From Somniosus microcephalus (Eukaryota): a stretch of DNA of 64,000 bases. The notes beneath the pieces are model-generated. The model saw only the letters and a list, made by a program, of their open reading frames with translations. It ran no database searches and was not told the origin of the DNA. Positions 26,442-62,684 of this stretch are shown one piece after another. The stretch's first letter is position 1, and each line of letters starts with the position of its first letter. The stretch covers positions 7,874,001 through 7,938,000 of the forward strand of contig CM126212.1 in NCBI GenBank assembly GCA_052327205.1, in the 5' to 3' direction. Both the position numbers and the translations under genes were made by a program.

Positions 26442-27690
26442 TTTTTGTTTTTTTTTGAATGGGACAAGCCTTACCCACAAAAAAGTTTTTACCCTTTTAA
26501 CACTGCAAAACACAAAAACAAAAAAAATCCTCTTTTTCACAATTTAATTTCCATATCTGAAATTCAAGTATTTAGATTTTCTGTTGTATTAAAGCAATTT
26601 TATAAAAAAAAAACACTATACTGGATCGTAAAGTCAGGAAATAACTGTCTTCCTTTTAACTGCACATAGCACAAAATTAAATACTAGCTGTTTTACTCAC
26701 TAATAAACGGATAGTTCAAAAGTCAATGGTATAGTTTAAATGTCCAAGAAATTGTACGAAGTCCAAAGGATTTATTTCCCAAGGTAAAGAGTTCAAAAAT
26801 ATTCAGTTTATTATTTTCCCTCTTCCTTTTTATTACAAAGCCGCAATGCAGTATGTCTCGGCGCAGTTTTTTTTTAAATCTAAGAGAATCAGGTCCACGT
26901 TTGTGTCTTGGTTTCCTTCCTTCGGAAAATCCAGTTGCAACAACGATGGCGTGTCTGGGTTCGTTCCTCGCCCACAGACACGGTCCTCGGCAGCAGCTCG
27001 GAGTGTTGTCTCTCCTTTTGGTGAAATTGGGGGGGGAGCTGGAGCAGGGTGGAGAGGGGGTGGGTGGGGGTTGTTGGTTATTTTACCCAAAAAGTCACTG
27101 GCAAAGTAAAAGAAGAAAAAAAATACATAACAGCAGCCACACAAATCTCACACAAGGCCCCACCAGAGCTGCGCCTCTTTTTTGTGTGTGTGCTGCTCTC
27201 GGGAAGTATTTCTCAGGAGCCAGTGGGATCCAGCATGGCCTTTTATCCGATAGAATGAGGGGACGGGGCGGGGAAAATGGGAAATAAGGAAGAATGGGGG
27301 GTGGGTGGGGGGGGTAGGTTGGGATGAATGGGGGTGATGTGGGTACGCAGAGTCGGCGCTCCGATGGATGACGAACACACACACGGTAGGTAGAGGCCGG
27401 CCGGCTGGTTCCTGGCGGGAGGCTTCCTAGGCTCAGCTCCAAGCGGTAGGCCCGGCAGCGTCTCTCAGGCGCATCTTCGCACTGCGGCCCCCCCACGCAA
27501 CCCCCGTCACTCCACCTCGCTTACGGCCCAGGTTAATTTAAAAAAAATAATAAAATATCTTCTCAAGTACTTCAACCGTTACACAGGGGCAGGGGGGCGG
27601 CGGCGGCGCCTGAAGGCCAGGTCTGAGGCGACTGCCGCACTTTCAAACCGACACCAGCTCTCCGCCACAACAATGGCGGCTCCAACCCGA
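26442..27690 (-). other. RBBP6: Probable long RBBP6 5' leader
   Basis: No recognisable repeats between the CpG island and the ATG; exact TSS not determinable. Confidence 0.55.
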
Positions 27691-28400
27691 GAGCGCCAGG
27701 GGTCTCCCACCGCCCGGCGCAGGGGCGCGTGCGTCACAATCCTCTCCACGGAGCGGAAGTGACGCGCGCTGCCTGTCAATCACCGCGCTTTCACCCCGCC
27801 CCCTTCCCCTCACAACCACAGCGTCAACTCGGCGCGCCGCCTGTCAATCAGCGCGCTTTCGCCCCGCCCCCTCGCCCCCTCTCCCCCCTCACTGACACAG
27901 CGCCAACTCCGCCGCCGCCAAAAAGCCGCGAGAGTGAGGTGGGCGCTCGAGCTTTTTCGTCTCTCTCACATTTAAGATGGCGCCGGTTGGAGCGGCGGTG
28001 GGTATCTCCTTGTAAAAAAAAGTTATTTTTCCTTTTAGCCTTTTTCTTAACAAAACAATGGTTATTTTGTCGTTTTTTTCGCCTTGCCAAGCACGCACAA
28101 AGAGCGGTAAGATCTGACGGGGAGACTGACAATTCGTGTGTAGTCAACTATTTTTGAATTTAGTGTTCATTCCTCAATATTTATTTTGATTTAAATCCTG
28201 AAGGAAAAAGTTGAACAGTCTTTTGAAACATAATCTTTGTATATATGAATGTAGAGGCGGTTGGGGTTGGCGGAGGGGCGGCGGAGGGGGACACCTTCTC
28301 CCCCCATTAGCTGCTGGTCCTGAGCCCCCAGGACTGACCCAGCTCCGCTCAGCACAGCTGCCCTACAATCCGCTCAGCTCGTGTCCGATCACTTGGCAGC
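27330..28400. promoter_or_regulatory. CpG island / bidirectional promoter for RBBP6 (-) and HELZ-like (+)
   Basis: CpG-rich; YY1-type motifs CAATGGCGGC (27671-27680) and AAGATGGCG (27974-27982); ETS-CRE composite CGGAAGTGACG (27754-27764); two TGATTGACAG decamers on the minus strand (27773-27782, 27841-27850); GC boxes. Confidence 0.85.
27950..28106 (+). other. Candidate non-coding first exon of the HELZ-like gene
   Basis: Plus-oriented YY1 motif near the start and donor GCG|GTAAGA at 28106/28107; start boundary is a guess. Confidence 0.4.
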
Positions 28401-42180: not shown

Positions 42181-42282
42181 GGAGGATGAGAGAGAACTTG
42201 GTTTTTAAACTAGTACAAAGTAATTGGACAAAAGTTTCTTCAATTAATTTTTAACTGTCTCTTTCAGGTTGTGGTCTGAAAC

Positions 42283-42471
42283 ATGGCTGAAAGGAGGCCT
42301 GGCGAGCCATGTGACCAAGCATACGAACAGGCCTGGCAGCAGAAGTGTAAGCTGGCGCATAATTGCAAGGAAGGGCTGGGTGTAACCAGCCACACTGACT
42401 GTCCTACTGCATCAGTCGAGGCTATTAGACTTCAGGAATTACTGTACAGAATCTTATGCCTCATACGGCTG
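42283..42471 (+). CDS. HELZ-like helicase with zinc finger, first coding exon (exon begins 42268)
   Basis: Acceptor TCTCTTTCAG|G, ATG in AACATGG, donor CTG|GTAAAT; MAERRPGEPCDQA...VEAIRLQELLYRILCLIRL aligns to recalled human HELZ MEDRRAEKSCEQA...IERIKIESLLYRIASFLQL. Confidence 0.85.
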
Positions 42472-45407
42472 GTAAATACTTGATTTTAACCACAATATTT
42501 ATATCTTGATTCAAAAGGTTTTCTGCCATTTAAAAATGTCAGTCTTGTTTTTCAAGGAGTGATTTCTCATTGGTGCACCATGGGCTGTCCAGGGTCAAAC
42601 AGAACATCTGATTCAATTATTTTTTTCCCATTTGCTTTTTGTAAAAAAAAAAGTATAAATGAGATTCAAAAGAACAAAAAAAATCATGTCCATAAAATTT
42701 CACACTTTAAAAAAAAATCTTTAATGGGTTTTCCGCTCCCCGCTTGCATAGTATTCCTTCCATGGTTTGAGTTAGTCCAGCCACAAAGTACAAGCCATTT
42801 GCTGAATCAGAGTGATCCAATGTTGCAATCAAAGAAGTAGAAAGATAATACAGTTGTAACTTGGGTGCTGTGCGGAAGTCGTTCCCAAATGGCTTTGCAG
42901 TTACAGGTTTAAATCTTCATGTAAATTCAGCACTGAGTCATGGGCGGGATTAGAATGCATTTATGTGGTGAGGCACTGCATTGGCAACCTGGAAATGGTG
43001 AGTGGGTGGGGAGTGGAGAAATACTTGGGTTTAATGCCTTTATCGCAGTTTGTGAATAATGCCTGCTTTCACGTATGCTCTGATTTAACCTATCGAAAGC
43101 AACAGGAATCGTAAATGTCAACACGACTGATTACTTAAAATGGGAATAAAGTTCAGAACCGCAATTACAATTTGGACTTCTTCCTAATGGCTTTCTTGCA
43201 TTTGGATTCGATTCCTGTTTCCATGAGTAACCAAAGCATGTTTATTATTACCACGTATGGGCTAATACAGCCCAGGTTTAACAATTGCACCTGACTCGTG
43301 ATGAATTGCTTACCCGGAGAATGTGTGAGCTGGCCATCACATTTTGCTGTCACCTCAAAAGATAAAGAATGCGATATCAGCAGACGACTGCACACAGCAA
43401 ACACTTTTGTCAAGATTTATTTACAAATAAAAACAACAAATCGGCATGATACTTTTCAATGCAATACGTAATGGTGAATTAGAACCAGTTAATATACCCT
43501 ATTCCAGAAAACTGCTTCTTGTAGTCTCTTTGTAGGCAACACCTCCTGTGTATGAAACAACTTAGTTTTCTGTCTCCTATTTCCTTTGGGATGAGATTTT
43601 GCAAATGGAATGCGTGAGCTTCAAATGCTCATGTAGCTTGCGGGTGTTTCAGGCAGGATTGAAGAACATTGAAAGCTAAATATATATTGTACCCTTTCTG
43701 TGGTTTAAATACAAGGCAACAGACACTGGCGAATAAAGGCGCAGTACATGAGAATGGTAACATGGAAAGTTGAATGCAGACTGGATCACAAGTACCTGGT
43801 AAAGCCTGACCATCAGCTTGCTCCGAGTCTGAAGCCAAGCAAGCACCTTTCACTTCACTAAATTCCAGACACTTAAACATTGGACAGTAAACTGAAAGTT
43901 ACACTTAAGACTGCATTTGTTAGCTATCAGAGCCCTTGTCTCAATTGATTTTTGAGTAGCGGGCATTGTTTAATTACATGCAGACTATCAGTCTCCTGTC
44001 TTCAGAACCTTAGTGAAGAGAGAGCAGCCTCCATATTAAACTCTGGATTATGTTTTTAAAAAAATGAAATAAAGACAAATTCCCATTGTGACACATTTTC
44101 AAACCGAGGCAGTGAATATACCAATTGAGACTGAATTATCAAATGAAGTGCTTGATTTGCATCCACCATTTTGAAAAGCTGATGTTTCAATTGGTGGATA
44201 TGTATTTAGTCTATTCCATTCTGTTGAAACATGCATTTCAGTGACCCAAACCCATAGTGATTTACATGTTTATATTACTACGTGTAAATGAACACGCCCT
44301 AGTTTACATCAAGGTGCTGAGGAAGCTGTGCCAGTCTCACAGCATTTCTGTTTGTAGCTGCAGAAGGTGGAATAGATTTATATGCTAAAATTGTGCTGAT
44401 CGCAGATAGTTGTAGGAGAGCTCGTGAAGATACTGGCTTACTTGTTACGAATTGGACTTTTATTGTGGGTTGTGCAGATTGACTATATAACATACAGGAA
44501 CTGCATGTAAGCTCATTTTAGACGGTGTGATCAAATTCATTTTCCTTTTTTTTAAATTTTGTTTAATAAATTTGATTTGCAAAAATATCATTTTTTGTCA
44601 CATTTATTTGTGCTTGTCATTCTCTGTTTTGAGATTCATTTCATCTTTTGAGAGTTTATGCACTTCACACGAGGCCAGGTTTTTACAATATTTTGTATAG
44701 TTTGCTAAACGTTTATTTCATGGTGCGGTTAATCGCGACCACCTCAATGGTAATCTGCAGAAATGCTTTTCAGGAAAATAATCCTGTTCACTGCAAGCTA
44801 AGAAACTTTTAGCTTCTGTCGACCAGACGCCCTTTCCGATGGCTTCTCCTTCTGTAGCTACTTTATTTTATTTAATGCCTCTTGTGTGTTTTTCATTTTC
44901 TGTAAGATCTACTTTGTCGCTCCCTCCTCCCTGAAGTGATGCTGTGCTCTGCTGCATAAGGGGAGCTTGGTGTCTGTTCTTTGCCAAACCATTTTTTGGA
45001 CCCAGTGACTCGCTGAACGATGAGAACGCTTTGTCGTCTGACTTGGCTGCGGATGAATATTTTGAGTTATTTTTCATGCTTCCACCCAGGGAATGATCTA
45101 GTTCCCATTCCCCCAGGTTGTTCCAGTGAGTCATTGTGGGGGAAGAACTCGACTCCCCAACCTTGGAAGCCGGAAACTTCATTCTGTTCATCCGTTCTTG
45201 GGTTTCCTGGAATCCTAGAAATTGGAGCACACAAGGCGGCCATTCAGCCTGTCGCCCCTGTGCCATTGCTTGCCCTTCAGCGGCAGCTGTCCCTTCCAAT
45301 CCAATTTGTCTTCCCTTTCCTTGTATCCTTTTATATTTTCTCTAAATATTTATCCAGTTTCCTTTTTAAATTACGTATTTGCCACTGTCTCGATGTGGGA
45401 TGCTTAG

Positions 45408-45664
45408 TGTTAAGTATGTGTATTGTATTGAACAATTAACACAAAGACTTAAACGTATAACTCAAACAGGTCTTTACTGGTTGGAGGTAGGGACTGCACG
45501 TAGGTCTTTACTTCATGCCCACAGGCGGGAACTGAGGGGAGATCAGTACCCACCGTACTATTTATACCCCTATGGCCAGGAATGGTACTGCGTATCACTA
45601 CGCCCTACAAGTAGTGCAGTCCTGTCCATAGGTTCAAAGTAGCACACATATTACATACACAACA
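45408..45664 (-). repeat. 3' LTR (257 bp)
   Basis: TGTTAAGT...ACACAACA; differs from the other LTR by 3 substitutions and one 5-bp indel by eye. Confidence 0.95.
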
Positions 45665-45677
45665 TTCCTCCCTTCTT
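45665..45677 (-). other. Polypurine tract AAGAAGGGAGGAA
   Basis: All-purine run immediately upstream of the 3' LTR on the element strand. Confidence 0.9.
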
Positions 45678-45980
45678 AGCTTTACAGTCATCTCCCCATT
45701 TAACATAACGTAATAACATATATACATATATAACTTCAGGTTTACATAACAGAATAACATAGATACATAGATAACTTCATGTCAAAACAGATCACAGATT
45801 CAGTCTCTGCGGAAAACAGTTCACAGATTCAATCTCTGTGGTGTAGTCGGTTCACGTTGCTGGAGTGACTCATTCAATAGTCCTTCCATGGATTTAACAG
45901 TTTGAACTTCCGAACTGAATTGGCTCCGTTCGGAGGGACCACGTGTGTGATCTGGTAGAGGTAATAATGGTTCAGATGGG

Positions 45981-47327
45981 TCATCTTCTGTTTCGACTTT
46001 TCCTTTTCTGCTTCTTGGAGACTCTCTGGGCTCCACTGTCAGCTGCCAGCTGCATGCGCAGTTCCTCCTTCTCTTCCTCCTTTTTCTGTAGTAGAGCCAC
46101 CTTCTCCCGATGTTCCGTAGACTTTCGGTGCTCCTCCATGATTTCTGTATGGTGGGAGTCGAAGTTACAAGTTGGGCAGGACAGGACATAGTAATATTCG
46201 GTGTCGTCCTGATCTAGGCCAGCGAGAGGGTCTTCTATTTCCTCCATACCCAGCTGGGCGTTAGCCAGCTTTTGTTCCAAGTCCAGACATCTTTCCTGAA
46301 GAGACTTCTTCATGCGTACCTCTTCATCCAGCTTTTTCTGGGCTTTCAGCAAGTCGTTTACTAATGACCTCATTTGAGATTTTACTACTTCAACTTCTTT
46401 TGGAGATTGATTGATCGGACTATTCAATCCCTCTACCGGAGCAGCTGTTTCAGCGGTCTGTTGTTCTACGTTGACGTGAGTCAGCGTACTTTTGGCATCC
46501 AAGGGCTGCTCTGTTGCAGTCATCTCAGTCTGTGTTGCCACCTCAGCTCTTCCAATAACCTTTGAGAGCTCCGAACCCCTTTCGTTTGAATATTGAAGTT
46601 CGTGTTCAAGTTTTTCCCATTTCAGAGTCCTGTCCTTCAGCATATGCAGGAGTTGGCTGACCGTTAACTCCTCTGACATCAGACGTTTTGTGTGCTCCTG
46701 CTCCATTTTCTCCATCAGCTGCTTCTGTTGTCTTTCCAGATTCTCCAACTCTATATCAAAGAACTCTTTCGTTGCATTCAACTCTTGCTCAAAACGGCGA
46801 AGCATTTGTTCTAATTGCTGTTGTAGTTTGAAATGGAGTTGAGTTCGAGCCCGGTGTCCCTCAGAAATGGGCACATCAGTAGACTTGCCAGACTCAGAAT
46901 CCACAGTTAAACTATGTTGTTGTTGCTCAGTGGAATTCTGTGCTGAAACTTTGTCTTTTGCACCTGAGTTGGGCTTACCATCATCCGTTCCAGAGTCTGG
47001 GCCGACTATCTTCACCGAGTTCTCACTCGTTATTGTTTGTAGGAAATGCCAGTCCATATTCATTTTCCTAATCCACTCCCGTCCTAGTAGTGGAGGACCT
47101 CCTTCAGATATCACATATAAGTCCATTATTTGACTGTCTTCGCCCTTGTGGACCACTGCAACCTCTATTTTCCCGATGGGGTACACTCTTTGCCCCGTGT
47201 ATGTTTTCAATATAATCCCCGTATCCTGTAGGGGAATATGTTGGAATAACTTTCCGTAATCTTTTTTATTTATGACCGTCAATGCCGATCCAGTGTCCAA
47301 TTCCAGTTTTACTTGGACTCCTTCTAT
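45981..47327 (-). CDS. Retropepsin-like protease fused to STK10/SLK-like coiled coil, optineurin-like coiled coil, matrin-type C2H2 finger and basic tail
   Basis: Open frame [19 protein letters not shown]...[11 protein letters not shown], then [41 protein letters not shown]...EVATQTE...[13 protein letters not shown]-x12-H-x5-[12 protein letters not shown]. Confidence 0.85.
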
Positions 47328-48197
47328 CTAAAGAGTGACCCAAATTGTCTGGAGGTCTGCACCCTTACCAGCGTTGAGTACTCTTAAGCTAGCCAGTTCA
47401 TTACAGCTTAAGCTAGCCAGTTCATTACTGCTAGCGTCTGAATCGGACTCCTGTTCGGCCACCTTGTGTACCTTTGCGTATTTTCCTTGCGGTGACTTCT
47501 TGTTGCTGGTCTTCTTCCCTGACCTGCAGACTCTAGCTATGTGTCCAAGCCTACCACAAGTTCTACATTCTTGGTTTTTAAACCAACACTGGTTCTGATC
47601 ATGCGTTGTCTTTCCACAACGATAACATTTGCCAGAACTCTCACCCAATTTGTGTGCACTGAGCTCCGGTGACCGTAGCTGCATTACTGCCGTGCCTCTC
47701 GCTGCGGCTTCGTGTGCTGCCGCCATAGTGACCGCCTTCTCAAGCGTCAGCTCATTCTCCTCGAGCAGTCGCTTTTGTGTATCCTGTTTAAATAAACCAC
47801 ACACAAATTTGTCTCGTAGTGCATCTGTCAGTCCCGTTCCAAACTGGCAATATTTCGCTAATTTACGCAATTCCAGCAAATATTCAGCATTGCTTTCATG
47901 CTGCAGCTGCCTTCTGTCGTAAAATTTAAATCGTTCCGCTAGCATCAGCGGCGTGGGGTTTAGATGATCTTTCAGGACAGTAACAATCTCATCGAACGTC
48001 TTATCCGCCGGTTCATCTGGTGATAACGGGTGTTTCAATTGCCCGTATGTCTTCGCACCCATTAAATTTAATAATGTTACAGCTTTATCTTGGTCACGAA
48101 TTTTATTGGCCTTACAAAAATTTATTACTCTTTCAACATATATGGCCCAATCTTCGAGGTCACTATCAAAGGTGCTAATATTCCCGTGTTTAGGCAT
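47328..48197 (-). CDS. Gypsy-type Gag (289 aa) with two zinc knuckles
   Basis: EDWAIYVER...LRDKFVCGL...LTLEKA capsid-like region; CYRCGKTTHDQNQC and CRTCGRLGHIARVC; same frame as the protease, separated by one TAG. Confidence 0.92.
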   Translation of the reverse strand: MPKHGNISTFDSDLEDWAIYVERVINFCKANKIRDQDKAVTLLNLMGAKTYGQLKHPLSPDEPADKTFDEIVTVLKDHLNPTPLMLAERFKFYDRRQLQHESNAEYLLELRKLAKYCQFGTGLTDALRDKFVCGLFKQDTQKRLLEENELTLEKAVTMAAAHEAAARGTAVMQLRSPELSAHKLGESSGKCYRCGKTTHDQNQCWFKNQECRTCGRLGHIARVCRSGKKTSNKKSPQGKYAKVHKVAEQESDSDASSNELASLSCNELASLRVLNAGKGADLQTIWVTL

Positions 48198-48781
48198 TGT
48201 CGATTTGCAATTTCTCAGATTTTATTTTCTTTACTTGTTAGCAAAGATGGCGGCTTCCCGCTCTTGCCGTCGTCCTCCGCCCACAAAATGGCGGTTTTCC
48301 CGCGCTTGGCGGTCTTCACCCGTCCCCCGACGCCGTCTCCCTTCAGCCCCCGAGTGCGGCCCTTATCTTCGCCGCGATCGCCCGAGTGCGGCCCTTATCA
48401 GCGGATGCGATCGCTGGATCGCGAAGTGGCTCCTGACCGAAGCGGCTCTCGGCCCTTATCTTCTGTGCGATCGATAGCCCGCGCTGTGCACCGCGGCTCT
48501 CGCACCTTGAGCTTCTGCAGCCGCCGCGCCTTTCAGTCCGAGTGCGGCCCTTTATCTTTGGTCCCGATCGCTGGCCCTGTCTTTGCAGCCAACGCTGCTC
48601 GGCTTACCCACGAGGTTATGGAGGCTTCAGGGTCCTAATGCCTGTCGCTTCCAGTCGCTGGAAGCTGTCAGGATTTCTCCTGCCCTTCAGTTTTGAGTGG
48701 GGTGTTGAGGATTGAAACCTCTCCAACGTCCTGTCTTTGGACGAAGCCGCCGTGGAATAACTGCCGCAGGGTTCGAACCGA

Positions 48782-48791
48782 CTCGTCGCCA
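48782..48791 (-). other. Primer-binding site TGGCGACGAG (tRNA-Ser(GCU)-type)
   Basis: 1 nt after the 5' LTR; complementary to the recalled 3' end CUCGUCG-CCA of vertebrate tRNA-Ser(GCU). Confidence 0.8.
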
Positions 48792-48792
48792 G

Positions 48793-49044
48793 TGTTAAGT
48801 ATGTGTATTGTATTGAACAATTAACACAAAGACTTAAACGTATAACTCAAACAGGTCTTTACTGGTTGGAGGTAGGGACTGCACGTAGGTCTTCATGCCC
48901 ACAGGCGGGAACTGAGGGGAGATCAGTACCCACAGTACTATTTATACCCCTATGGCCAGGAGTGGTACTGCATATCACTACGCCCTACAAGTAGTGCAGT
49001 CCTGTCCATAGGTTCAAAGTAGCACACATATTACATACACAACA
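48793..49044 (-). repeat. 5' LTR (252 bp) with TATA box and AGTAAA poly(A)-like signal
   Basis: Direct repeat of 45408-45664; TATAAATA on the minus strand at 48939-48946. Confidence 0.95.
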
Positions 49045-49599
49045 CTTAGGGATAAAGAATTCAAATTAAGAATTTTTTTCACCGGTTTTCTTAACTTCTC
49101 TGTTCATTCTCCCAGTAATAATTCTGACTGGATGCCCCCCTTTTGCCTTCATTAAAGCCACTGTCGTGTTGCAGCAAAATAGATAATGTGAGCCCCATTT
49201 CAAACTCTTTGAAATGGCAAGCAGGCAACTTGCTCTGAGCCCAGACAATTCTGATCTCTAGTTAGCTACAAAGTGATGCACAAGCGTGACCCTGGAGGAA
49301 CACTTTGTGCACTTCTGCTGACATGAGGTACTTGCTTTGTGAGTAACCATAAACTCTGACTTCCGTCCTTTCACTGTGCCATCGCATGTTGGTACCTCCG
49401 TGCCCTGTACATTTACTGTGGCTTAGCTGGAAGAGTAATATTTGTAAAAGATTTAATAGATCCATTCCCTGTGGTGTTTCTGCAAAATCATGTTGAAGCA
49501 CATTACATTTCTTTGCGAGTTCATAGTTAGATTTTTGAAACACAATTGGAGCAAGAAAGACTTGAATTAAAACAGTGTCTTCTGTTTCTTAAACCCCCT

Positions 49600-49950
49600 A
49601 AAGTGACCCTGATGCAATGAGCTACTTTTTAAAGTGGAGTCATTGTTGTGCAGGTGAACGCAGCAATCATTTTGCACACCACAAGGTCCCTCATGAGATG
49701 AATGGCCAGTTAAATTTTTTTGTCCAAGTGGACACACAGAACTCTTGACTCTTCTTTGATAGTGCCAGGGAATCTTTAACATCAATGTGAACCAGCAGAC
49801 AGGATCTTGGTTTAGTGTCCTGCATGAAGGGCGCCCCATTCAGCAATGCAGCACTCACTCAGTACTGCACTGGAGTGTCAAGTAAATTGTGCTTGAACCC
49901 ACAACTTTCTGATTGAAGAGGTAAGATTGCTGCTATCTGAGCAAAACTTG
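49600..49950 (-). mobile_element. Decayed DeuSINE
   Basis: Similar to 31800-32140 in the same orientation. Confidence 0.6.
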
Positions 49951-51224
49951 TGCATATACTACTGTGTATGTATGATTTTTAAGTATGGTTATACATATCT
50001 CTATCCTCTTGAGCGTTTGAAAGCAAGATAATTCTTGTGTATTAGCTTCCCAATGTATAGACTTTAAAAAAGAAACTCTGTCTGTTGCAAGTGTTTAGTT
50101 TGAGCCCGGTGCCGCACCTCTGGACACATGACCTTTGGCTTTAGGCGGTGCCATTGAGTCTTGCTGAACCGATGACTGTGAAGATTAGTCTCGAGTGTCC
50201 TGAGATTACTTGTTCCTTGCTCGTTGTTGATGCAAAAGGGAGACTGATTCTCTGACCGTCATGGCCGAGCAACGTAGGAACCTGGAAGGTACATATCGAC
50301 ACAGTCTTGAGGTTCTGGCAATGTTATTCAAACCTCTCAATCGTATAACCAGCTAATATCTTGGATCCCTCAGTTTATGTAGTTGAAATGCAGATAGTGT
50401 GCAATATTGTATATTATGTTTTCTTGCATTCTGCTTGTATTAAACAGAGTGCTATTTTACTAGTTGTGTAATGCAATATACATTCAAACAGTTGCTGTCA
50501 ATTGTTCAAAAAGGTTATGCCTCCCCTGCATGGGTCAAGACACCTGCTGTTTTGTGATTTTGGGAAAGGTACAAGCATATTTTTCTTGGGTTTAAAAAAA
50601 AAAACCCCAATAGGCTGTATATAGTTGCCTGACACTGATTCTGTCTTGAAGTTGCTAAACTGCTTGAGTTTCACTCTTGTGGTTTGATCTAGATATTGCT
50701 CAGTTGAATTGTGATCTTTATAGCTCCCTCTCAACCATCTGTTGTGTGTCGTATTATTTCAATACCCACAGCTTGTTATTTAAAGATTTTGTATTTTCTG
50801 GGGAGTCCACAAATTTAATTTCCTGTGAAGTAATTTAAATATTGCAGCATAATTTGAGCTGCAGTTGGATTAAGGGAACTGCACACTCCCTATAATGATT
50901 GGCAGAACAGAATGGCTGGAAGTTGTTGGCTGTTGCTGCCTCTGAAAAGTAACTTTTTTAACATTTTCAGTTTTGTTTAGTGTAAAAGAAACCTCCTTGC
51001 TGCACAGTTCTCTAGAAAGAGGAAGAAGGAAAATTTGAGGGACCCTGTTTTCCTGCTCTTGGGAGCAGGTACCTGCTCACATTTTCCTCCAGGAATCGGT
51101 CTCTGGTGTGAGTGGATTTTTTTTTTTTTATATAAGGGTTTAACCAAAGTGTCTTTGTTTAATGACTGTTGCAGAGACCAACTTTGTATGAAATGAGATT
51201 TAAAAAAAAACAGAACTGAAGGTG

Positions 51225-51372
51225 ATACAAAAACAGAAAATGCTGGAGATACTAAGCAGGTCAGGCAGTATCTGTGGAGATTCTCTTCACAGATGCTACC
51301 TGACCTGCTGAGTATCTCCAGCGTTTTCTGTTTTTATTTCAGATTTCCAGCATCTGCAGTATTTTCTTTCTG
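51225..51372. mobile_element. Short palindromic insertion with 14-bp TSD, probably derived from Penelope-like element termini
   Basis: ~52-bp imperfect inverted arms (AAAAACAGAAAATGCTGGAGATACT...TCTGTGGAGA / TCTTCACAGATGC...CAGCGTTTTCTGTTTTT); CAGAACTGAAGGTG at 51211-51224 and 51373-51386. Confidence 0.7.
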
Positions 51373-51629
51373 CAGAACTGAAGGTGGCCTGAATCAGCTG
51401 GAGTGCCAGCAGAAAACCCAAATTTGAATCTGTTTTGCTGGACACATTCCAGTTGGGTCTTCTCTACATTTGGTTGAGTTTCATCAACATTTGCCAGTTC
51501 AAATGGGAGGGGATAGGGAGTAGAAGCAGAAACACTAACTTGGGAAGGATCTTCTCATACACTGCTCAAACCACATTCCCAGTCAGATAGCTGCAAAGGA
51601 GTCAGAAAGGAAACAAATTAAATTGTGTT

Positions 51630-51905
51630 CATTACGTCTCCTTGTGTGGACGTAAAAGATCCCACGACACTGTTCGAAGAAGAACAGACGAGTTCTTGTG
51701 TACCAGCTAACATTTATCCCTCAACTAACATCGCTAATATAGATGATCTGATCCCTTAACACGTTGGAACCTTGCTGGCATAAATTGGCTTTTGTGTTTA
51801 CCTACATAACAATGACAGTCCTTCAAAAGTAACTCCTTAGTTGTCAAGTACGTTCGCACATTCTGATGACATGAAAGGCGCTATATAAATGCGAATTTGT
51901 TCCTT
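51630..51905 (+). mobile_element. Decayed DeuSINE
   Basis: GTAAAAGATCCCA...TTTATCCCTCAAC...AAAGGCGCTATATAAATGC. Confidence 0.65.
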
Positions 51906-53004
51906 CCTGAGGGTAAGATTGACAGAACTAAGGTTTTGTTTGCGCAGGGGTTGAGTTTAACCAGCTAGTATTACTGCTTGTTGAGTGAGGATTGCCCTAC
52001 CTGTTAGAACATGGGCTTGTTGGTTTTTTGGAACTGAGGGAAGAATCCCAGCCTCCAGTGACTGGTCCATTCTTACAGCTTTCACTAGTGAGGCAGGCAA
52101 GCTGGTCAATCATCAACAATGTCCTGGAGAAATGCAGACTTGCCAGGTTCCTGTATTGGATTACCTGATCTGAAGGTTAAATCCCAACTTCTATCGCCAG
52201 GTATGTAACCTTCCAGCCCAACGAGACCAACCTTCCCGCAAGAAGAGTTCTTAATCGTCTATTAGCCAACTGATGAATGTGGGGTTGGATCCTTGGTAGG
52301 TGGTTAATAGCAACCATCAAATGTATGCGAACATTGTCACCATATTCCTGAGCGCCATATCCCATGGAAAAGTGCTGTCACCAATTGGAGGTACACAGGT
52401 TCAGCAACAGCTCCTTTTCCACAACTCAATCATGATGGCGACTGAACCCTGGATATATGTTTGCATATTCTCATCCGTGGTTTCCAGATAAAGCCTTCCA
52501 GCAGTAGTCAGCTTGAGTCTAGGTTTCCTGAGTAGCAACTGCCTTCAGTGTGATGGAATGACCTACATCAGACACGACATTGTGTCAGCCACCGGGCTGT
52601 GTTACCAGGCTTCCTTATCCCCAACAGCTTAATTGTCCTCATTTTGCAAAGAGGTGTGCCTGCTGTGAGGCTGCCTCCCACTCCAGGGTACAGTGACAGG
52701 TTGAGGTCGACCACAAATTCACCTCACAGTTTGATTCTGGATCTGGAGCTAGCGGAAGTCCTGGTATCCACAAAGACCTCTTTTAGACAAGTCTTGTACA
52801 CAGCATGCTTACCTTGGATTGGGATGTGGCTCTCACTGCAGAAAGACCGAAGTGCCTTGTGCCTCATCTCGAAGGTCCTGAAGGAGTGACCAGCTTGAAG
52901 TTGTCATACATCAGGATCCTGAGATAACACCATGAATCAGGACTCGCATACTCCTTGTCAATCCCTTCAAGATCCCCTCCTGGGTTGTACAGAGGTGTAC
53001 TATT

Positions 53005-54460
53005 TTTTAAAATTCATTGATGGGATGTGGGCGTCGCTGGCTGGCTAGGCCTGCATTTAGTGCCCATCCCTAATTGCCCTTGAGAAAATGGTGGTGAGCC
53101 GCTTTCTTGACCCGCTGCAGTCCATATGGTGTCGGTACACCCACAATGCTGTTAGGAAGGGAGTTCCAGGATTTTGGCCCAGCGACAGTGAAGCAACGGC
53201 GATACAGGTCCAAGTCAGGATGGTGTGTGGCTTGGAGGGGAACTTGTAGGCGGTGATGTTCCCATGCGTCTGCTGCCCTTGTCCTTCTAAGTGGTAGAGG
53301 TCGTGGGTTTGGAAGGTGCTGTTGAAGGAGCTTTGGCGAGTTGCTGCAGTGCATCTTGTAGATGGTACACAGTGCAGCCACGGTGCGCCGGTGGTGGAGG
53401 AAGTGAATGTTGAAGGTGGTGGATGGAGTGCCAATCAAGCGGGCTGCTTTATCCTAAATGGTGTCGAGCTTCTTGAGTGTTGTTGGAGCTGCACTCATCC
53501 AGGCAAGTGGAGAGTATTCCATCACACTCCTGACTTGTGCCTTGTAGATGGTGGAAAGGCATTGGGGAGTCAGGAGGTGAGGCACTCGCCGCAGAATTCC
53601 CAGCCTCTGACTTGCTCTTGTAGCCACAGTATTTGTATGGCTGGTCCAGTTCAGTTTCTGATCAATGGTAACCCCCCAGGATGTTGATAGTGGGGGATTC
53701 AGCGATGGTAATGCCATTGAATGTCAAGGGGAGATGGTTAGAGTCTCGCTTGTTGGAGATGATCATTGCCTGGCACTTGTGTGGTGCGAATGTTACTTGC
53801 CACTTGTCAGCCCAAGTCTGAATGTTGTCCAGGTCTTGCTGCATATGGACACGGACTGCGTCTGTGTTTGACGAGTCTCGAATGGTGCTGAACAGTGTGC
53901 AATCATCAGCGAACATCCCCACTTCTGACCTTATGATGGAGGGAAGGTCATTGATGAAACAGCTGATGATGGTTGGGCCTAGGACACTGCCCTGAGGAAC
54001 TCCTGCAGTGATGTCATGTGATTGAGATGAATGACCTCCAACAACCACAGCCAACTTCCTTTGTGCTAGGTATGATTCCAACCAATGGAGAGTTTTCCCC
54101 TTGATTTCCATTGACTTCAGTTTTGCTAGGGCTCCTTGATGCCACACTCGATCAAATGCTGCCTTGATGTCAAGGGCAGTCACTCTCGCCTCACCTCTGG
54201 AATTCAGCTCTTTTGTCCATGTTTGGACCAAGGCTGTAATGAGGTCAGGAGCTGAGTGGCCCTGGCGGAACCCAAACTGGGCATCAGTTACCAGGTTATT
54301 GCTGAGTAAGTGCCGCTTGATAGCGCTGTCGACGACACCTTCCGTCACTTTGCTGATGATTGAGAGTAGACTGATGGGACGGTAATTGGCCGGGTCGGAT
54401 TTGTCCTGCTTTTTGTAGACAGGACATACTTGGGCAATTTTCCACATTGCCGGGTAGATG
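53005..54460 (-). mobile_element. CR1-clade LINE (second family) with well-preserved RT region
   Basis: WKIAQVCPVYKK...NYRPISLL...QFGFR...ALDIKAAFDRV...GVPQGSVLGP...FADD; frameshifted downstream. Confidence 0.92.
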
Positions 54461-55649
54461 CCATATTTGGGGGTACCCCCTGTTATATTTCACAGCTCAA
54501 CCTATTGACCATTCTGGGTAGAGTGCAGTGGACCCCCAGGTGAGCCTGCCAAAAACACGCTGCTGTCTGTAAAAAAGGAGCATCACAATACTTTCAAAAA
54601 TGTCTACAACAGACAGTAAGTCCATTCCTTACAATATCATTCCAAAACATTGTTGATTAAGACACTGAATAGGATGAAGGACAGTGGACAACCTCGCCTC
54701 ACTCCTCTCTCATTTGATACGCGAGCTTGTTACACAGTTCGCTAGCCTTTTGGTAGTTGGCATCTAAAGCACTGTAGAACATCACAGTTACCTCAAACAC
54801 CCTTGAACTTTTTCTCTTGATGAGGATTTGAACTACTTTGATGCCCTTGGGTAAAAGTAACACTTTGGAAGACCCATCTTTGAGGAATTCCATGCACCAG
54901 GAAGGAAAATCCATGTAGTTGGCAGCATGGAAAGAATTTGGGGTTTTTCTGATCAATGAATTGCTTGGGAGTTCAGGAGACCATGGAGTTGAGCTGCAAA
55001 GAAGCTGAATAATACTTTTACTCAATCTGTGACTTAGACTGGAACAATGACGAGTGTTGTTGATGGGTTGATATTGGGATATAATGTTCCCTGTACTTGC
55101 TTAAAAAGTGCCTGTCCATAATGTATAATGTGTTTACTTGTACAGCTAAGTGGATGTAAATCACACAAGGCTTTCAAAAACACAACTTTCATGATTTAAG
55201 GAGTGCTGAGTTAAGCGGTTATTTATAGTTATTCACTTTGTGAGTTGAAGGCTGAAATAAATTCTGACCATGATGTACTTGAGCAGTGAACGGGTGAGAT
55301 GGGGGACACCTTTCAGGAAAGCAGTGGCGAGTTACCTACAAGCATGCAAAAACATCATTACGATATTATCTGTCAATGAACAATATAACTGCAATGCATA
55401 TACTACATAAGTTTACCTCCCAGTTACATACCGATGATTTGTACAAATAACCGCTTTTGGCGGGGTGGCTTAGGTTGGGGGGGGGAGTATTTTCCTAATA
55501 TTTAATTGTTGCCAATTTGCAAAGTTAGAAAGAGGAGGAGGCTGATGATAGGAAAATATTTGTGATGGGTGGATGTTAGTTTGGAGACTGTATCCATGAT
55601 TGGTAGTGGATGTGCTTTGCCGGACGTATCTGCAACATTGCCCTTTTAT

Positions 55650-55920
55650 TTAAAAAAATGATTTCTGGGGATGTGTGCGTCGCTGGTATTTATTGCCCAT
55701 CCCTGGTTGTCCTGAGGAGGTGGTGGTTCACCTTGAACAGTTGAGAGAGGTTTTGTACAACTGAGTGTCTTGCTCGGCCACTTCAGAGGGCAGTGAAGAG
55801 TCAACCATGCTGGTGTGGGGACTGGAGTCACACAGGCCAGACAAGATAAGGAAGGTCGGTTTCCTCCTCCAAAGGAGATCCGTGAATCAGTTTGTGGTTT
55901 GATGATAATCCAACAGGTAC
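55650..55920 (-). mobile_element. Decayed SINE with CR1-family-2 tail
   Basis: Similar to 21575-22015. Confidence 0.55.
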
Positions 55921-56904
55921 TGGTAGAAAATAGTCTTCAAGATTTTGTGAGGAGGTGGTCTTTCAGTTGTCCTTGAAGGTTTGAGTTTCAGATTACACTT
56001 GCAGCTTAACATACAAAGTCACGCAGCTGCATTTTCCCTTATTCATGAGGTATTTGTAAAATGTTGGTATTGATTCTGGTGGCAATTGGTTAAAGTAACA
56101 AAGTTTAAAAATAGAACTGGGAAAATCTATGTAGAATGCCATCAGGAATTAACTCCTGATCTTGCCGAGGACACTGTGCCAGGGGTGAAGATAGTCAAGA
56201 TGTTCTTTGGAATGAGAGAGAGAGAAATTTGGAGGGCTTGGTGACTCAATTTGATGCCATGAGGCATCTAACAAACAGTTGAATGTTTTTACAGCCTGTA
56301 AGACTGGTCCACGGAGTTCAGGATGCAGTAACTACTTTTCCACTGAGTGCTACTTTTTCTGTTGATGTTCCTCAGTACCATTTGTGCTGACCGAATGCTG
56401 CAAATGCCGTAAATACTCTTGGCCTCCCTAAACTTAAGAATAAAGTTGGATTTTCCCTATTAATTACCGTATTTAGCAATAATACTCCACATTAGAATCT
56501 GTGTTGGATTTGCACTACTTTTCCCGTCTCATGAATAGTACATTTGGAGCCTGACTGATGCAGGCTAGTGTTACTTTTTGAGTTTATTTGTGTCAAAACA
56601 ATTTACAAAAGCAAAGATACAAGACATATACAACACAACATAATAAATGTATCTGAAAGATCAGGAAACATTCCACAGGGAGCTAACTTCACATTTATCC
56701 AGCTTCAGACTTTCGTGCTAAAAAAGAAAGTCCAGTAAACTCTGTGCCAGCAATGTCTTTCAGTTCCATCAAGTTTCCCATCATGAAAATAGCACAGTGT
56801 AAGCTTTTGTTACAGAACTGCTTCATCTCGACATGCTCAGACAGAGACAGAAAACTGATGAACTGGGACACAGGACTTGAAAAAAGAAAAAAAAAAAAAA
56901 AATT

Positions 56905-58340
56905 TGTTCGCAGGATATGGCTGACGATGGCAAAGCCACAATTTTATTGCCTCGTGGCCCCGAGGAGGTGGTGGTGGGTCTTCTTGAACCGCTGTAGTCT
57001 TTGTGCTGATGGAGCTCCCATCGTGTTGCCAAGTAAGAAATTGAACGATTTTGATCCAGCATTGATGAAGGAAGGGCAGAATGTGTCCAGATCAGGATGG
57101 TAGAGAACTTGGAGGTAATGGTGTTCCCATGACATTGCTGCTCTTGCCTCCTCTGTGGAAGAGGTTGCAGGGCTGGAAAGTGCTGTTGATGTAAGCTGGG
57201 TGAGTTGCTGCAGTGTATCCTGTAGATCATGCATAATGCAGCCACAGTGCACTGGCGGTGAAGGGGTGATATTGAGGTAGCAATCAAGCAGACTGCACTG
57301 TTCTGTGTCGTTTTGAGCTTCTTGAGTATTGTTGCAGTTGCACCCAATTAGGTGAGCGGAGTATTCCATCACACTCGACTTTTTTTATTCATTCATGGGA
57401 TGTGGCCTAATTGCCCTTGAGAAGGTGGTGAGCTGCCTTCTTGAACCGCAGCAGTCAGTGTGGTGAAGGTACTCCAACAGTGCTGTTAGATAGGGAGTTC
57501 CAGGATTTTAACCTACCGATGAGGAAGGAATGGGGATATATTTCCAAGTCAGGATGGTGTATGACTTGGAGGGGAACTTGGAGGAGGTGGTGTTCCCATG
57601 TGCCTGCTCCCCTTGTATTTCCAGGTGATAGAGGTCATGGGTTTGGGAGGTGCTGTTGAAGAAGCCTCGAGTTGCTGCAGTGCCTCTTGAGTCTTGAAGA
57701 TGGCGGAGAGGTCAGGAGATGAGCCACTTCGAGGACCCAGCCTCTGCCCTGCTCTTGAAGCCATGTTGTTTATTTGGCTGGTCCAATTAAACTTCTAGTC
57801 AAGATGTTGATTGTAGGTCACTTGCAATGGTGGCGCCATTTAAGTTCAGTGGGAAGTGGATTTTTTTGTTGAAGGTTATTTCCTGACACTTGGGTGATGT
57901 GAATGTTACCTGTTACTTGTCAGTCGCAGTCTGAATGTTATCCTGGTCCTGCTGTAGGCTTGCATGGGCTCTTTCATTATTCGTGGAGTTGAGAATGGAG
58001 CTGAGAATTGGGCAATTGTCGGCCAACAGCCGCACTCATGACTTTGTGGTGGAGGGAAGGTCGTTGATGAAGCGGCTGAAGATGGTTGGGCCAAAGATGC
58101 TGCTCTGAAGCACACCTGCAGCAACGTCCTGCGGCTGTGATGATTTGCCTCTGCCAACCATGACCGTCTTCCTTTGTTAAGTATGACTCCAGCATTCGAG
58201 GGTAGTCCCTTTTGACTGCTGTTGACCTCAGTTTTGCTAGGGCTCCTCGGTGCCATATTTGGTCGAATGCTGCCTTGGTGTTGATGGCGGCTGCTGTCGC
58301 CTTTTTTGATATTAGGCTAGTCTCCATATCTGGATGATGC
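56905..58340 (-). mobile_element. Two adjacent decayed CR1-clade (second family) fragments
   Basis: Both ~56905-57375 and ~57380-58340 resemble 53005-54250. Confidence 0.75.
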
Positions 58341-58849
58341 TAGTGATGAGGTCTGAAGCCTTTGAAGATGGGATTGAGCATTGAATATCTCCGTACAAGT
58401 GCTGTTCTGCTACATTACAACACAGATTCTCATAAGATTTACCTGAGGCTGAAATACGAGGACGAACCACTGGAGACAGTTGAAGGACCTTTTTGCGATT
58501 CAGTTGTACAATTGACTTGCACTTTGCAGTGCCTCATCAGCATTCTAAACAAACTGTCCTCATCAAACAGACCCTTTATCCTAACTAATGCTTGATCAAA
58601 GAGAATCTGCTGCTTATGTTAAGACTATCTTTGGTCCTTCATTTTAAACTTGGGGAAGGGACAGCCTCTCTTCTAAATTTCAGTTAATGTTGCTTTTACA
58701 GTCTTTCATATGGCTAGGTGTCTTCAATGAAAAAATGACAGAGAACTTTATAGAATCATAGAAATTACAGCACAGGAGGAGGTCATTGTCATTGTGCTGG
58801 TGCTAGCTCAAGAAGTCCCCTTAGAAAATCTGCTCCCTTGTAGCCACAT

Positions 58850-60256
58850 GTAACCCCATTATTTAAGAAAGGAGGGAGAGAGAAAACAGGGAACGACAGA
58901 CCAGTTAGCCTGATATCAGTAGTAGGGAAAATGGTAGAATCTATTACTAAGGACGTGGGTAACGGGACACTTAGAAAATAATAATAGGATTGGGTAGAGT
59001 CAACACGGATTTATGAAAAGGAAATTGTGTTTTTCAAATGTGTCAGAATCTTTTGAGGTTGTAACTAGCAGAATAGATAAGGGGAAAACCAGTGGATGTG
59101 GTGTATTTGGATTTTCAGAAGGCATTCGACAAGGTGCCAACACATGAGGTTATTAAACAAAATTAGGGCTCATGGGATTGGGGATAATATACTAGCATGG
59201 ATTGAGGATTGGTTAACGGACAGAAAACAGAGAGTAGGAATAAACGGGTCATTTTCGGGTTGGCAGGCTGTAACTAGTGGGGTACCGCAAGGATCAGTGC
59301 TTGGGCCTCAGCTATTCACAATCTACATCAATGATTTGGATGAGGGGACCGAATGTAATATATCCAAGTTTGCTGATGATACAAAGCTGGGTGGGAATGT
59401 AAGTTGTGAGGAGGATGCAAGGAGGCTTCAAGGGGATATAGACAGGCTAAGTGAGTGGGCAAGAACATGGCAACTGGAATATAATGTGGAGAATTGAGAA
59501 GTTATCCACTTTGGTAGGAAAAATAGAAAAGCAGAGTATTTTTTAAATGGTGAGAGATTGGGAAATGTTGGTGTTCAGAGGGACCTGGGTGTCCTTGTAC
59601 ACGAATTGCTGAAAGTTAACATGCAGGTACAGCAAGCAATTAGGAAAGCAAATGGTATGTTGGCCTTTATTACAAAGGGATTGGAGTATAAGAGTAAATG
59701 ACGTCTTACTGCCATTATGTAGGGCCCTGGTGAGACCACACCTGGAGTATTGTGTACAGGGAGTGCAACGAAGGTTCACCAGACTGGTTCCTGGGATGGG
59801 AGGGATTGTTCTATGAAGAGAGATTGAGTAGACTAGGCCTATATTCTCCAGAGTTTAGAAGAATGAGAGGTGATCTCATTGAAACATGCAAAATTCTTAC
59901 AGGACTTGATAGGGTATATGCAGGGAGGATGTTTCCCCTGACTGGGGAGTCTAGCACCAGGGGTCACAGTCTCAGGATAAGGGGTCGGCCATTTAGAACT
60001 GAGATGAGGAGAAATTTCTTCACTCAGAGGGTGGTGAATCTTTGGAATTCTCTACCCCAGAGGGCTGTGGAGGCTCAGTCATTGAGTATATTCAAGACAG
60101 AGATCGATAGATTTTTGAATATTAAGGGAATCGAGGGATATGGGGATAGTGCAGGAAAGTGGAGATGAGGTAGAAGATCAGCCATGATTTTATTGAATGG
60201 TGAAGCAGGCTCGAAGGGCCAAATGGCCGACTCCTGCTCCTAGTTCTTACGTTCTT
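58850..60256 (+). mobile_element. CR1/HER1-like LINE, RT region and 3' end
   Basis: WIEDWLTDRKQRVGING...GVPQGSVLGPQLFTIYINDL...FADDTK; RGDLIETCKI...RRNFFTQRVVNLWNSLP. Confidence 0.93.
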
Positions 60257-60289
60257 GCCATTAGTTTCATTCCTTTTTTGACTGTCTAG

Positions 60290-60790
60290 AGCTGAACCAG
60301 ACCATTCGCACCCTTGGCATCCTGTTCACCCTTGAGTTGAGTTTCAGCCCCCGTATCCGTTCCATCATGAGCTCTGCTTCCTTCCACCTGTGCAACATAG
60401 CCCACCTCTGCCCCTGTCTCCGTGCTAATGCCATTGAAACCCTTTACATGCCTGTGACATCTTCAGATTTGACTATTGAACATTCTCCTTGCTGGCCTTG
60501 CACTCTCCATCCTCTAAACTTCAGCTTATTCAAATCTCTGCTACGGATATCCCATCCGTATCGCCTCCTTCCTCACTGCTATGCATCAGCTTCCTGTCCT
60601 CCAAAGTATTAAATGTAACATCGTTTTCCTCATCTTTAAATCCCTCTCTGGCCTTGCCGCACTCCAGTTTGACAACCTCTTCCCCCCACAAGCAGTCTGT
60701 TGTTCTTACTTTGCTTTTTGTTCATCTGATCCTTCCTTTGTCCAACTCTTGCTGGTATAGATTCAGCTGCCTGGGTCCTTCCCTCTGTGC
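60290..60790 (+). mobile_element. Decayed L2 fragment
   Basis: Similar to 13020-13420. Confidence 0.65.
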
Positions 60791-61189
60791 AAGTGGGGAG
60801 AGGAAGTTAATTTCACAATGGAGGTGGCTTACATGTATTTAAAAATAAAAATTGACAGCACCTTTTTATATTTTTAAATGCATATTTACTGCCTTTCCTC
60901 TGAATCATTGGCAGGGCGTGTGCTGCATTGTGGCCGATCGAGGTGTGTCCATAGTTTTTTGGAGGGGTTGGGGGTGGGGGTGGCCGGAGAGCAGGACGAT
61001 GAGAGAGGTGTGCATTGAATGTCATCAGTAATACTGTCATTAGGTGAACACCAATCTAAATTTTTACACTTTAAATTGTGCCTTATTTGATGTATTTTGC
61101 TAAGAAACATGGAAATCAGTATTAAATATTATTTATTGTAAGTATTTTTGCACCTGAATGAATGTAAACACTTTTGGGTTTCTTTACAG

Positions 61190-61226
61190 AAAAATTACAA
61201 AGAGGCAGATGAAGATTGTAAAAGTG
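61190..61226 (+). CDS. HELZ-like coding exon 2 (KNYKEADEDCKS)
   Basis: TTTCTTTACAG acceptor, G|GTAAGT donor; recalled human HELZ KNYVQADEDCRH. Confidence 0.88.
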
Positions 61227-61412
61227 GTAAGTTGCCTGAAATGGCTTCCTTAATTTTATGTTTAAATATAATCTGTATACAGTTGAGGTATTTTTTCAGG
61301 GATTGTTCTTTTCGTAAGAGTTTTAAGATTGAAAAACCCCTGCACATGTGTGGCATGGCTTTTGGTGATGGGTGTATTGTTCACATGTTAAATTAACTGT
61401 TTTGTTTCCAAG

Positions 61413-61537
61413 TCTTATGCTTCCATGAAATCCTGGGAGAAAACCTATTAAGAGATGTGTTGGCATCACTAGTTCTGGAGGGAAAACTGAAGGATGTTTA
61501 TGATGCTTTGTGCGATTGTAAGACTACGGACTGTATG
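61413..61537 (+). CDS. HELZ-like coding exon 3 ((V)LCFHEILGENLLRDVLASLVLEGKLKDVYDALCDCKTTDCM)
   Basis: TTTGTTTCCAAG acceptor, ATG|GTAGGT donor; phase 1 restores the frame; aligns to [29 protein letters not shown]. Confidence 0.8.
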
Positions 61538-61636
61538 GTAGGTCAGCGTTTTGGCGATTGAGATTTGTTTTGTAACTAATACGATTTCAGTAGAATTCAT
61601 GGCGCACACAAAGCACATGTCGATTTATGCTTCCAG

Positions 61637-61693
61637 AATGGAGCCTCCTTAAACCATCTGAGACGGCTACTGCACTTGCTGACGGAATCGCAG
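61637..61693 (+). CDS. HELZ-like coding exon 4 (NGASLNHLRRLLHLLTESQ)
   Basis: TTCCAG acceptor, CAG|GTAAGC donor; 19 codons aligning gap-free to NGMVTKDLTRLKTLLSETE. Confidence 0.82.
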
Positions 61694-62638
61694 GTAAGCT
61701 GTTAAATGTATGGTTGCAGAAGTTTAAATGTGTCTCCCTTCCTCCAAACAAGTAATGCAGAAGCAGATAGTTGCACTGTACATTTTTTGGGAGGGTGGGA
61801 GTTTGAGTATACTGCATTATCAAGTTAGGTACAGAATGGGTGAAATGTCGGATTAAGTTCCTCCTACTGTCACTAACAACATGCCTTTTCTCCAACCCCT
61901 GAGAAGCGCACCCAGCACAGTCAGTGTGATATATCAATTTCTTACATCAGCAATCTGTGGGTGAGAATGCCGTATTAGATGCTGATTCTACTTTGTGTAT
62001 GGATTCATGGCCACTGGGAAACTACCCTTTTAATTAGGACCCCTGCATCTGGTAGAGAGCGATGACAATCTGGGCTAGATCGAGTTAAGGCGCCAAAGAT
62101 GAGAAGACCGATTTTGAACGCTGCTGTAGTTGTGCCATCATTCGTAATTTCAGATATCTTGTCTGCTGCTTCATTATCAAAGATACCTCCTGGCTAAGTC
62201 CCTAAAATGGATTACACTGGAATCTTTCTTGCATGTGAAGCAAATGGGAGTATTCTGGCTGTTAATGCAAAAGAGAGGTCTACTGTCACCTCACAGGTTA
62301 ATATACAAGATAAAATGTCGGAAGCTTCTGTGCACTATTCTGCTAACTGTGAATGTTCTGGACTTCCTTAGAACAATATAACCAGAGAATTGTGAATGCT
62401 TAGGTTTCCAGTTCTAGGTAGGACCCAGGGTGAGGATCTTGCCTTCCTCTTCAAAGTGGGCCAAAATAGTCCCTGGGGAGGGAATGTTACATGACTCATT
62501 TACAGTGGTTTGCACAATCTGTTAATACATATATTGCAGATAGTTAGTTACATTAGTAAGTGGTGATGCAGAAGATTAATAGAAATGTTAAGGATTTTAA
62601 TTATTTATGTGCATTTTCTTTGTTTTTTTTTTTAGCAG

Positions 62639-62684
62639 GCTACAACTAACGGTGCTCTCTTTTCATCAGAGCAAGATGCCAAAG
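62639..62684 (+). CDS. HELZ-like coding exon 5 (ATTNGALFSSEQDAK); gene presumably continues right of the window
   Basis: Long polypyrimidine tract plus TAGCAG acceptor, AAG|GTGTGT donor; weak similarity to TATSNALSG. Confidence 0.65.

Follow-up and report, generated by a model that had tools for sequence, protein, structure and literature searches.

HELZ-B, a second HELZ gene, begins in a stretch of 64,000 nucleotides (nt) of the Somniosus microcephalus genome (6.45 Gb), which is called the window throughout this text (contig CM126212.1, here C11; C11:7874001-7938000). There is very little doubt that this gene is an ohnologue of HELZ generated by an early vertebrate whole-genome duplication. 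As judged from its motif residues, the helicase motor of the encoded protein is probably impaired, and the protein probably serves as an adaptor in mRNA decay; we assign a probability of roughly 0.6 to these three parts taken together. HELZ has so far counted as one gene, and the decay activity known for its protein has been mapped to the tail. A long-lived copy that keeps the tail and the PAM2 motif next to a worn motor would separate the two functions and offers residue swaps for testing. HELZ-B is also a hidden addition to the ancestral jawed-vertebrate gene set.

Structure and transcription of HELZ-B

Five coding exons of HELZ-B lie in the window. In the rows below, C21 denotes the contig of the same genome that carries the canonical HELZ.

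42268..42471, plus strand: coding exon 1, with 15 nt of 5′ untranslated region, ATG at 42283 and 189 coding nt (63 codons)
42472..61189, plus strand: intron 1, GT-AG, 18,718 nt, containing remains of long interspersed nuclear elements and one young long terminal repeat (LTR) element
61190..61226, plus strand: coding exon 2, 37 nt, equal in length and phase to its C21 HELZ counterpart
61413..61537, plus strand: coding exon 3, 125 nt
61637..61693, plus strand: coding exon 4, 57 nt
62636 or 62639..62684, plus strand: coding exon 5, with a tandem acceptor; 23 further exons follow beyond the window to C11:8233247

All introns between these exons are GT-AG and the 454 joined coding nt (151 codons plus 1 nt) are free of stops, an open frame that is far beyond chance. 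The original prediction, made from the letters of the window, had proposed these five exons, with 151 uninterrupted codons across an 18.7-kb intron, and RNA data bear it out with one amendment. Four runs were aligned to positions 60900-63000. X1, an RNA-type contig from another organism, contains three junctions within its aligned stretch (exons 2-5) and loose ends on both sides; one of these, 29 nt long, matches the 3′ terminus of exon 1 exactly (42442-42470) and gives the exon 1-2 junction, so that all four junctions are shown, and the start of the other resembles exon 6. The amendment concerns exon 5, where X1 uses the upstream AG at 62636, yielding 152 codons, and not the acceptor at 62639 that had been proposed; both forms occur among database isoforms (P0001, P0002). 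In the raw RNA run X18, 13 reads aligned and the exon 2-3 junction was crossed by 4, with a single start position, whereas X17 gave one aligned read and X3 none, such blanks not being evidence.

The closest named proteins to the gene of the window are shark proteins, exon 1 being 73-95% identical to the annotated ones. Extended rightwards, as had been suggested, the model reaches its stop at C11:8233247 with no break and with the downstream exons intact: 28 coding exons over 317 kb, all introns GT-AG, 5,334 nt and 1,777 amino acids (aa), of which 1,706/1,777 are identical, in a gapless alignment, to a Pristiophorus protein. The CCCH finger (C-x8-C-x5-C-x3-H, aa ~175-194) and the superfamily 1 (SF1) helicase core that were expected downstream are both present, but the degeneracy of the helicase motifs, described below, had not been foreseen. 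In P0002, a protein 96% identical to HELZ-B, Pfam zf-CCCH scores above cut-off, and AAA_11 and AAA_12 are also matched, indicating a UPF1-like SF1 core. The predicted model of the chimaera HELZ-B (mean predicted local distance difference test score, pLDDT, 68) has Sen1 and UPF1 as its top structure matches (E about 1e-25). Behind the core come a PAM2 motif (aa 1092-1102) and a low-complexity tail of ~675 aa that has six short motifs in common with canonical HELZ; these six, the C-terminal end among them, are found in 86-90 of 90 full-length canonical HELZ proteins. A pseudogene is ruled out by the open frame and the spliced RNA. So is a retrocopy, given 28 exons with phases common to HELZ (equal to those of C21 HELZ in 21/21 exons).

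Origin of HELZ-B

The search with exon 1 returned a second match at C21:71233801, which is the canonical HELZ locus. We modelled the first 21 exons of this gene, and over the first 1,118 aligned residues HELZ-B is 54% identical to it. Mobula HELZ shares 97.5% and bat HELZ 83.6% of aligned residues with the C21 protein; for HELZ-B the figures are 54.4% and 53.4%, respectively. In the N-terminal 152 aa, HELZ-B matches bat HELZ at 50/152 residues versus 97/158 for the C21 gene, in agreement with the low identity that had been noticed in the window. The separate, more conserved HELZ whose presence near PSMD12/CACNG had been proposed as a check is therefore the C21 gene. The window gene neither groups with tetrapod HELZ nor adjoins PSMD12, and the C21 gene does both; the suggestion that HELZ-B is not the true orthologue consequently holds, and the C21 gene fills that role by identity, tree position and PSMD12 neighbour. 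HELZ-B is not HELZ2 (PRIC285) either. The two resemble each other in the zinc finger near the N-terminus and in the helicase region, matched pieces being ~26-39% identical, but the HELZ2-like gene has its own locus on C13 and falls far outside the clade of HELZ and HELZ-B, and HELZ-B has a single helicase core and no RNB-type Pfam match. No third or fourth HELZ copy turned up in the genome when exon 1, a core exon and a 1,119-aa query were used for searches, one of which was stricter at first pass.

HELZ-B shares with HELZ (human KIAA0054, Drosophila CG9425), its sister clade, the phases of 21/21 exons, the CCCH finger, the UPF1-like SF1 core, PAM2 and a long low-complexity tail whose short motifs and C-terminal end also agree. 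It differs in its locus beside RBBP6, its 54% identity, a tail shorter by ~150 aa, a patchy distribution, DDAS for DEAA, and Asp at the motif Ia Asn and the motif V Gly. Databases give both genes one name, 'probable helicase with zinc finger domain', and HELZ-B stands in RefSeq as HELZ, a shared name that can confuse orthology assignment for sharks, sturgeons and eels.

Phylogenies were built with FastTree from 75 rows, including HELZ2 and unnamed rows, and with IQ-TREE from 31 of those rows, the unnamed rows, HELZ2 and redundant taxa having been dropped; the vertebrate rows of the trees are all from jawed vertebrates. In both, canonical HELZ (clade A) and HELZ-B (clade B) are sister clades spanning the jawed vertebrates, with IQ-TREE support of 100/100 for clade B, 100/99 for clade A and 100/100 for A+B. 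The amphioxus, hemichordate and echinoderm proteins fall outside A+B, and invertebrates are single-copy. Approximately unbiased (AU) tests, run on 16 rows and a quickly built tree, rejected two other dates for the duplication: an origin inside cartilaginous fishes, which would put their copies in a single clade (p 3e-7), and a pre-chordate origin, which would join clade A to amphioxus without B (p 8e-13). The trees thus place the event between the divergence of amphioxus and the split of sharks from bony fishes.

Conserved gene order points to the kind of event. The original prediction had recognised RBBP6 as the neighbour of HELZ-B and had read the region as a paralogous neighbourhood, and both observations stand. 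The synteny anchor is the following:

26330..26441, minus strand: first coding exon of RBBP6 (DWNN domain), ATG at 26441

Gene order on C11 runs from RBBP6 (minus) through HELZ-B (plus) to a TARP-type CACNG (minus, 8341.5-8249.6 kb) and then a protein kinase C (PKC) gene (minus). This PKC gene has two alternative last exons, at 8366 and 8380 kb (C11:8366247, C11:8380261), a pair characteristic of PKC beta I and beta II. On C21 the order is PSMD12 (plus, 71141 kb), HELZ (plus), CACNG (minus, 71523 kb) and PKC (minus, 71701 kb), so that the two blocks mirror each other in CACNG and PKC paralogues of like order and orientation. The genes concerned are presumably PRKCB and CACNG3 in the C11 block and PRKCA and CACNG4 in the C21 block, whose human counterparts lie at 16p12 and 17q24, respectively. 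Together with trees that include HELZ and HELZ2, this synteny supports the idea of a second HELZ from vertebrate genome duplication. Four CACNG loci are found in the genome (C11, C21, C28, C43), of which those on C11, C21 and C43 lie near a PKC C-terminal match. Since the C11 CACNG is nearer to that of C28 (126/169) than to that of C21 (96/169), the C11/C21 split is suggested to lie in the older doubling, and on these sequence comparisons the first round is tentatively taken as the more likely source of HELZ-B. The pairing of the C21 and C43 copies has no clear winner (81/144 vs 82/143), so that this choice of round is provisional.

Helicase motifs of HELZ-B

For comparison with the HELZ-B motifs we used 142 rows of canonical HELZ, counting isoforms, and 34 from invertebrates, of which 9 are named and the others were assigned by their tree position. 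Four residues show no variation in 142/142 canonical and 34/34 invertebrate rows, namely Glu in Walker B, Gly in motif V, and Thr and Arg in motif VI; the same holds for the motif Ia Asn in 140/140 and 29/29 covered rows (169 in total). Every HELZ-B species (29/29) has at least one of these otherwise invariant residues altered. The motif Ia position is acidic (Asp or Glu) in 26/26 covered species. Walker B Glu has become Asp in 13/13 covered cartilaginous fishes and, separately, in Brienomyrus; the Walker B pair of Gymnothorax is Glu-Glu. Motif V Gly is replaced by Asp or Asn in 13/14 cartilaginous fishes, motif VI Thr is altered in 15/15 ray-finned fishes, and the arginine finger is Cys in 6/6 elopomorphs and Ser in Arapaima. 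The protein of the window has Asp692 at the motif Ia Asn, Asp787 at the Walker B Glu (DDAS being found instead of DEAA) and Asp977 at the motif V Gly. It retains 11/14 key SF1B residues (motifs Q, I, Ia, II, III, IIIa, V and VI), an incomplete set, and is altered in 12/95 invariant columns. The PAM2 Phe, for its part, is retained in 29/29 species.

UPF1-like SF1B helicases (UPF1, IGHMBP2, Sen1/SETX, MOV10) are the nearest solved relatives by sequence and fold. The UPF1 chains compared retain the Asp-Glu pair of motif II and the Asn of motif Ia, whereas the HELZ-B of cartilaginous fishes is without both. According to the accessible part of PMC3505976, the motif Ia Asn of IGHMBP2 touches an RNA phosphate, and a mutant with the motif VI Arg changed to His has no ATPase or helicase activity. 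A natural Walker B Glu-to-Asp change leads to slow hydrolysis in ABC transporters (PMC7756269, in part) and has been interpreted as a loss of hydrolysis in SMCL-1 (PMC5373644, in part). As far as the accessible sources go, pseudohelicases and degenerate ATPase sites (Utp25, Deinococcus PriA, the ABC degenerate site, SMCL-1) retain the fold with altered catalytic motifs, as HELZ-B does; the ABC degenerate sites and SMCL-1 carry the same Glu-to-Asp change, and for HELZ-B inactivity is predicted from sequence.

Proposed function and alternative explanations

The altered residues make it probable, if by no means certain, that the HELZ-B motor is impaired. For human HELZ, the accessible part of PMC6769256 reports that the tail binds the NOT module and PAM2 binds poly(A)-binding protein (PABP), that the N-terminal half bound neither, and that the helicase is termed putative. 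We propose that HELZ-B probably acts likewise, as an mRNA-decay adaptor in which PAM2 would bind PABP, the short motifs of the low-complexity tail would bring in CCR4-NOT, as the HELZ tail does, and an RNA/protein platform would be formed by the CCCH finger and UPF1-like fold. The motor probably still binds nucleotide, its Walker A, Q-motif and motif IIIa residues being retained, with hydrolysis slow or nil and a weaker grip on RNA caused by Asp692, Asp787 and Asp977. HELZ-B would then be a helicase-like scaffold, partly redundant with HELZ, and such redundancy fits its repeated loss. A more specific version, which we hold only tentatively and at slightly less than even odds, is that HELZ-B is a pan-vertebrate pseudohelicase. 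Here the RNA-backbone contact of the motif Ia Asn would have been lost at the origin of the gene, with later lineage-specific catalytic losses in cartilaginous fishes, the mormyrid, Arapaima and eels; nucleotide binding, PAM2 and the tail would have been kept, and the protein would work as a nucleotide-bound scaffold or as a decoy against HELZ for PABP/CCR4-NOT. If true, this would amount to a 400-million-year natural test of HELZ's need for its motor.

The main rival to the scaffold, unlikely but serious, is that HELZ-B continues to function as an RNA helicase driven by ATP, with altered kinetics or a different substrate, and that its motif changes reflect tolerated drift or tuning. Several observations favour it and weigh against our interpretation. 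Nucleotide-binding residues are retained almost everywhere, and among covered species the Walker A Lys (28/28), Q-motif Gln (27/27), motif III Gln (27/27) and motif IIIa Tyr (28/28) are all kept. The RecA region is identical at 393/465 residues between the window shark and the chimaera, whose predicted model retains a UPF1/Sen1-like fold. Changes in the window protein are not enriched at catalytic sites (3/14 key vs 9/81 other invariant columns, p = 0.38). Most catalytic residues are retained in sturgeons, and sturgeons and paddlefish keep Asp-Glu, the motif V Gly and the arginine finger, so that ancestral HELZ-B may have been active; Hemiscyllium also retains the motif V Gly. The Glu-to-Asp precedent comes from ABC ATPases and not from helicases. 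On the side of the adaptor, several tail motifs are gone from teleost HELZ-B proteins, and both proposed roles are read from sequence, CCR4-NOT binding by the HELZ-B tail being a prediction. An active helicase is, however, difficult to square with the loss of different residues in different lineages, all of them invariant in the 176 other HELZ rows, and a protein without the arginine finger, as in eels, would make an unlikely motor (PMC3505976). We continue to prefer an impaired motor within an adaptor protein.

It is improbable that HELZ-B is a redundant duplicate in slow decay, expressed, with little function of its own and heading for loss. Such a fate would agree with its evolution at ~3.6 times the rate of HELZ (0.17 vs 0.047 along the shark-chimaera path), with fragmented models in bowfin and whale shark, with the many lineages that yielded no copy in protein databases, and with a low RNA depth, which also counts against our preferred interpretation (13, 1, 1 and 0 records in the four runs over 60900-63000). 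However, the 5.3-kb frame is open across 28 exons, the tail shows 88-95% identity in a comparison of six sharks outside the orectolobiforms and 82-84% in carpet sharks, the altered residues are fixed across all covered cartilaginous fishes, and in the comparison with HELZ the first two codon positions are conserved much better than the third (0.66, 0.73 and 0.39 for positions 1, 2 and 3). Finally, a segmental duplication in the vertebrate stem, in place of a whole-genome duplication, agrees with the bracket that the tree alone provides, but is very improbable in view of CACNG loci on four contigs, three near a PKC match, which is the pattern that two doublings would be expected to leave.

Species distribution and relation to known ohnologues

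HELZ-B was found in 29 species including this one: 13 sharks, Callorhinchus, four sturgeons, paddlefish, two bowfins, Arapaima, Brienomyrus and six elopomorphs. The protein-database listings covered the best 120 of 477 hits, 120 of 333 hits and 150 of 11,390 cluster representatives, with 15 of the 20 members of the main shark cluster. When 292 listed proteins were re-sorted by best match, 12 fell to HELZ-B, all of them named and all from the groups above. Among the matches listed, no HELZ-B came from tetrapods, coelacanth, lungfish, gar, bichir or clupeocephalan teleosts, nor from rays and skates, although Mobula HELZ was listed. Loss in the lineages without a retrieved copy is therefore likely on the strength of these protein-database listings but unproven at genome level, and loss in batoids is possible. 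The original prediction of a gene lost in mammals agrees with the lack of a retrieved mammal copy, but was too narrow, since the apparent loss in these databases extends to tetrapods, clupeocephalans, gar, bichir and rays.

In the literature searched, mostly without subscription papers, we found no description of a second HELZ, and ohnologue tables in supplements could list the gene; the accessible parts of 10.1101/693333, PMC11172303 and PMC9319325 name no HELZ gene other than HELZ2 and the canonical one. Hidden or lost shark ohnologues are a familiar class, which lessens the surprise. Bmp16, a cryptic pan-vertebrate ohnologue, is likewise fast-evolving, kept in some fish and missing from well-studied species (PMC6395752, in part). 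Unlike Bmp16 as described there, HELZ-B is a putative RNA-decay factor with an apparent loss of catalysis, and it is the lineage-by-lineage wear of the motor that sets it apart.

In two species HELZ-B is annotated in two or three pieces (Rhincodon, P0355/P0356; Amia ocellicauda, P0220/P0256/P0270), and the split models of whale shark and this bowfin may reflect either assembly gaps or ongoing decay. Separately, the P0198 cluster of Watersipora subatra comprises nine similar short HELZ-named proteins of ~950-1050 aa, eight of them on a same-sized contig, possibly a tandem expansion in this bryozoan.

Candidate promoter region and intron 1

A splice acceptor on the 5′ side of exon 42268-42471 indicates a non-coding exon upstream. 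The region between the two genes contains one further feature:

27250..28000, no strand: CpG island between RBBP6 and HELZ-B, which stand head to head, GC up to 0.64, CpG observed/expected 0.8-1.2

This island is a candidate for a bidirectional RBBP6/HELZ-B promoter and for the site of the non-coding first exon. A strong donor-like site occurs near 28110 in the CpG region 27250-28200, which also contains ETS-like and YY1-like words.

The LTR element in intron 1 (45406-49044, minus strand) is 3.64 kb long and young, with LTRs 98-100% alike, TG...CA ends, a 5-bp target duplication and a gag-like zinc knuckle; no reverse transcriptase match was found in it. One in-frame piece matches the Pfam PKK domain of SLK/STK10-type kinases and looks like host sequence that the element has captured. 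Between its two frames, this copy carries a stop. A 71-aa piece of the element had 19,378 first-look candidates in the genome, 150 of which were scored; all 150 were 100% identical and most lay within open frames of ~740-750 codons, which suggests a very large, recent burst of the element.

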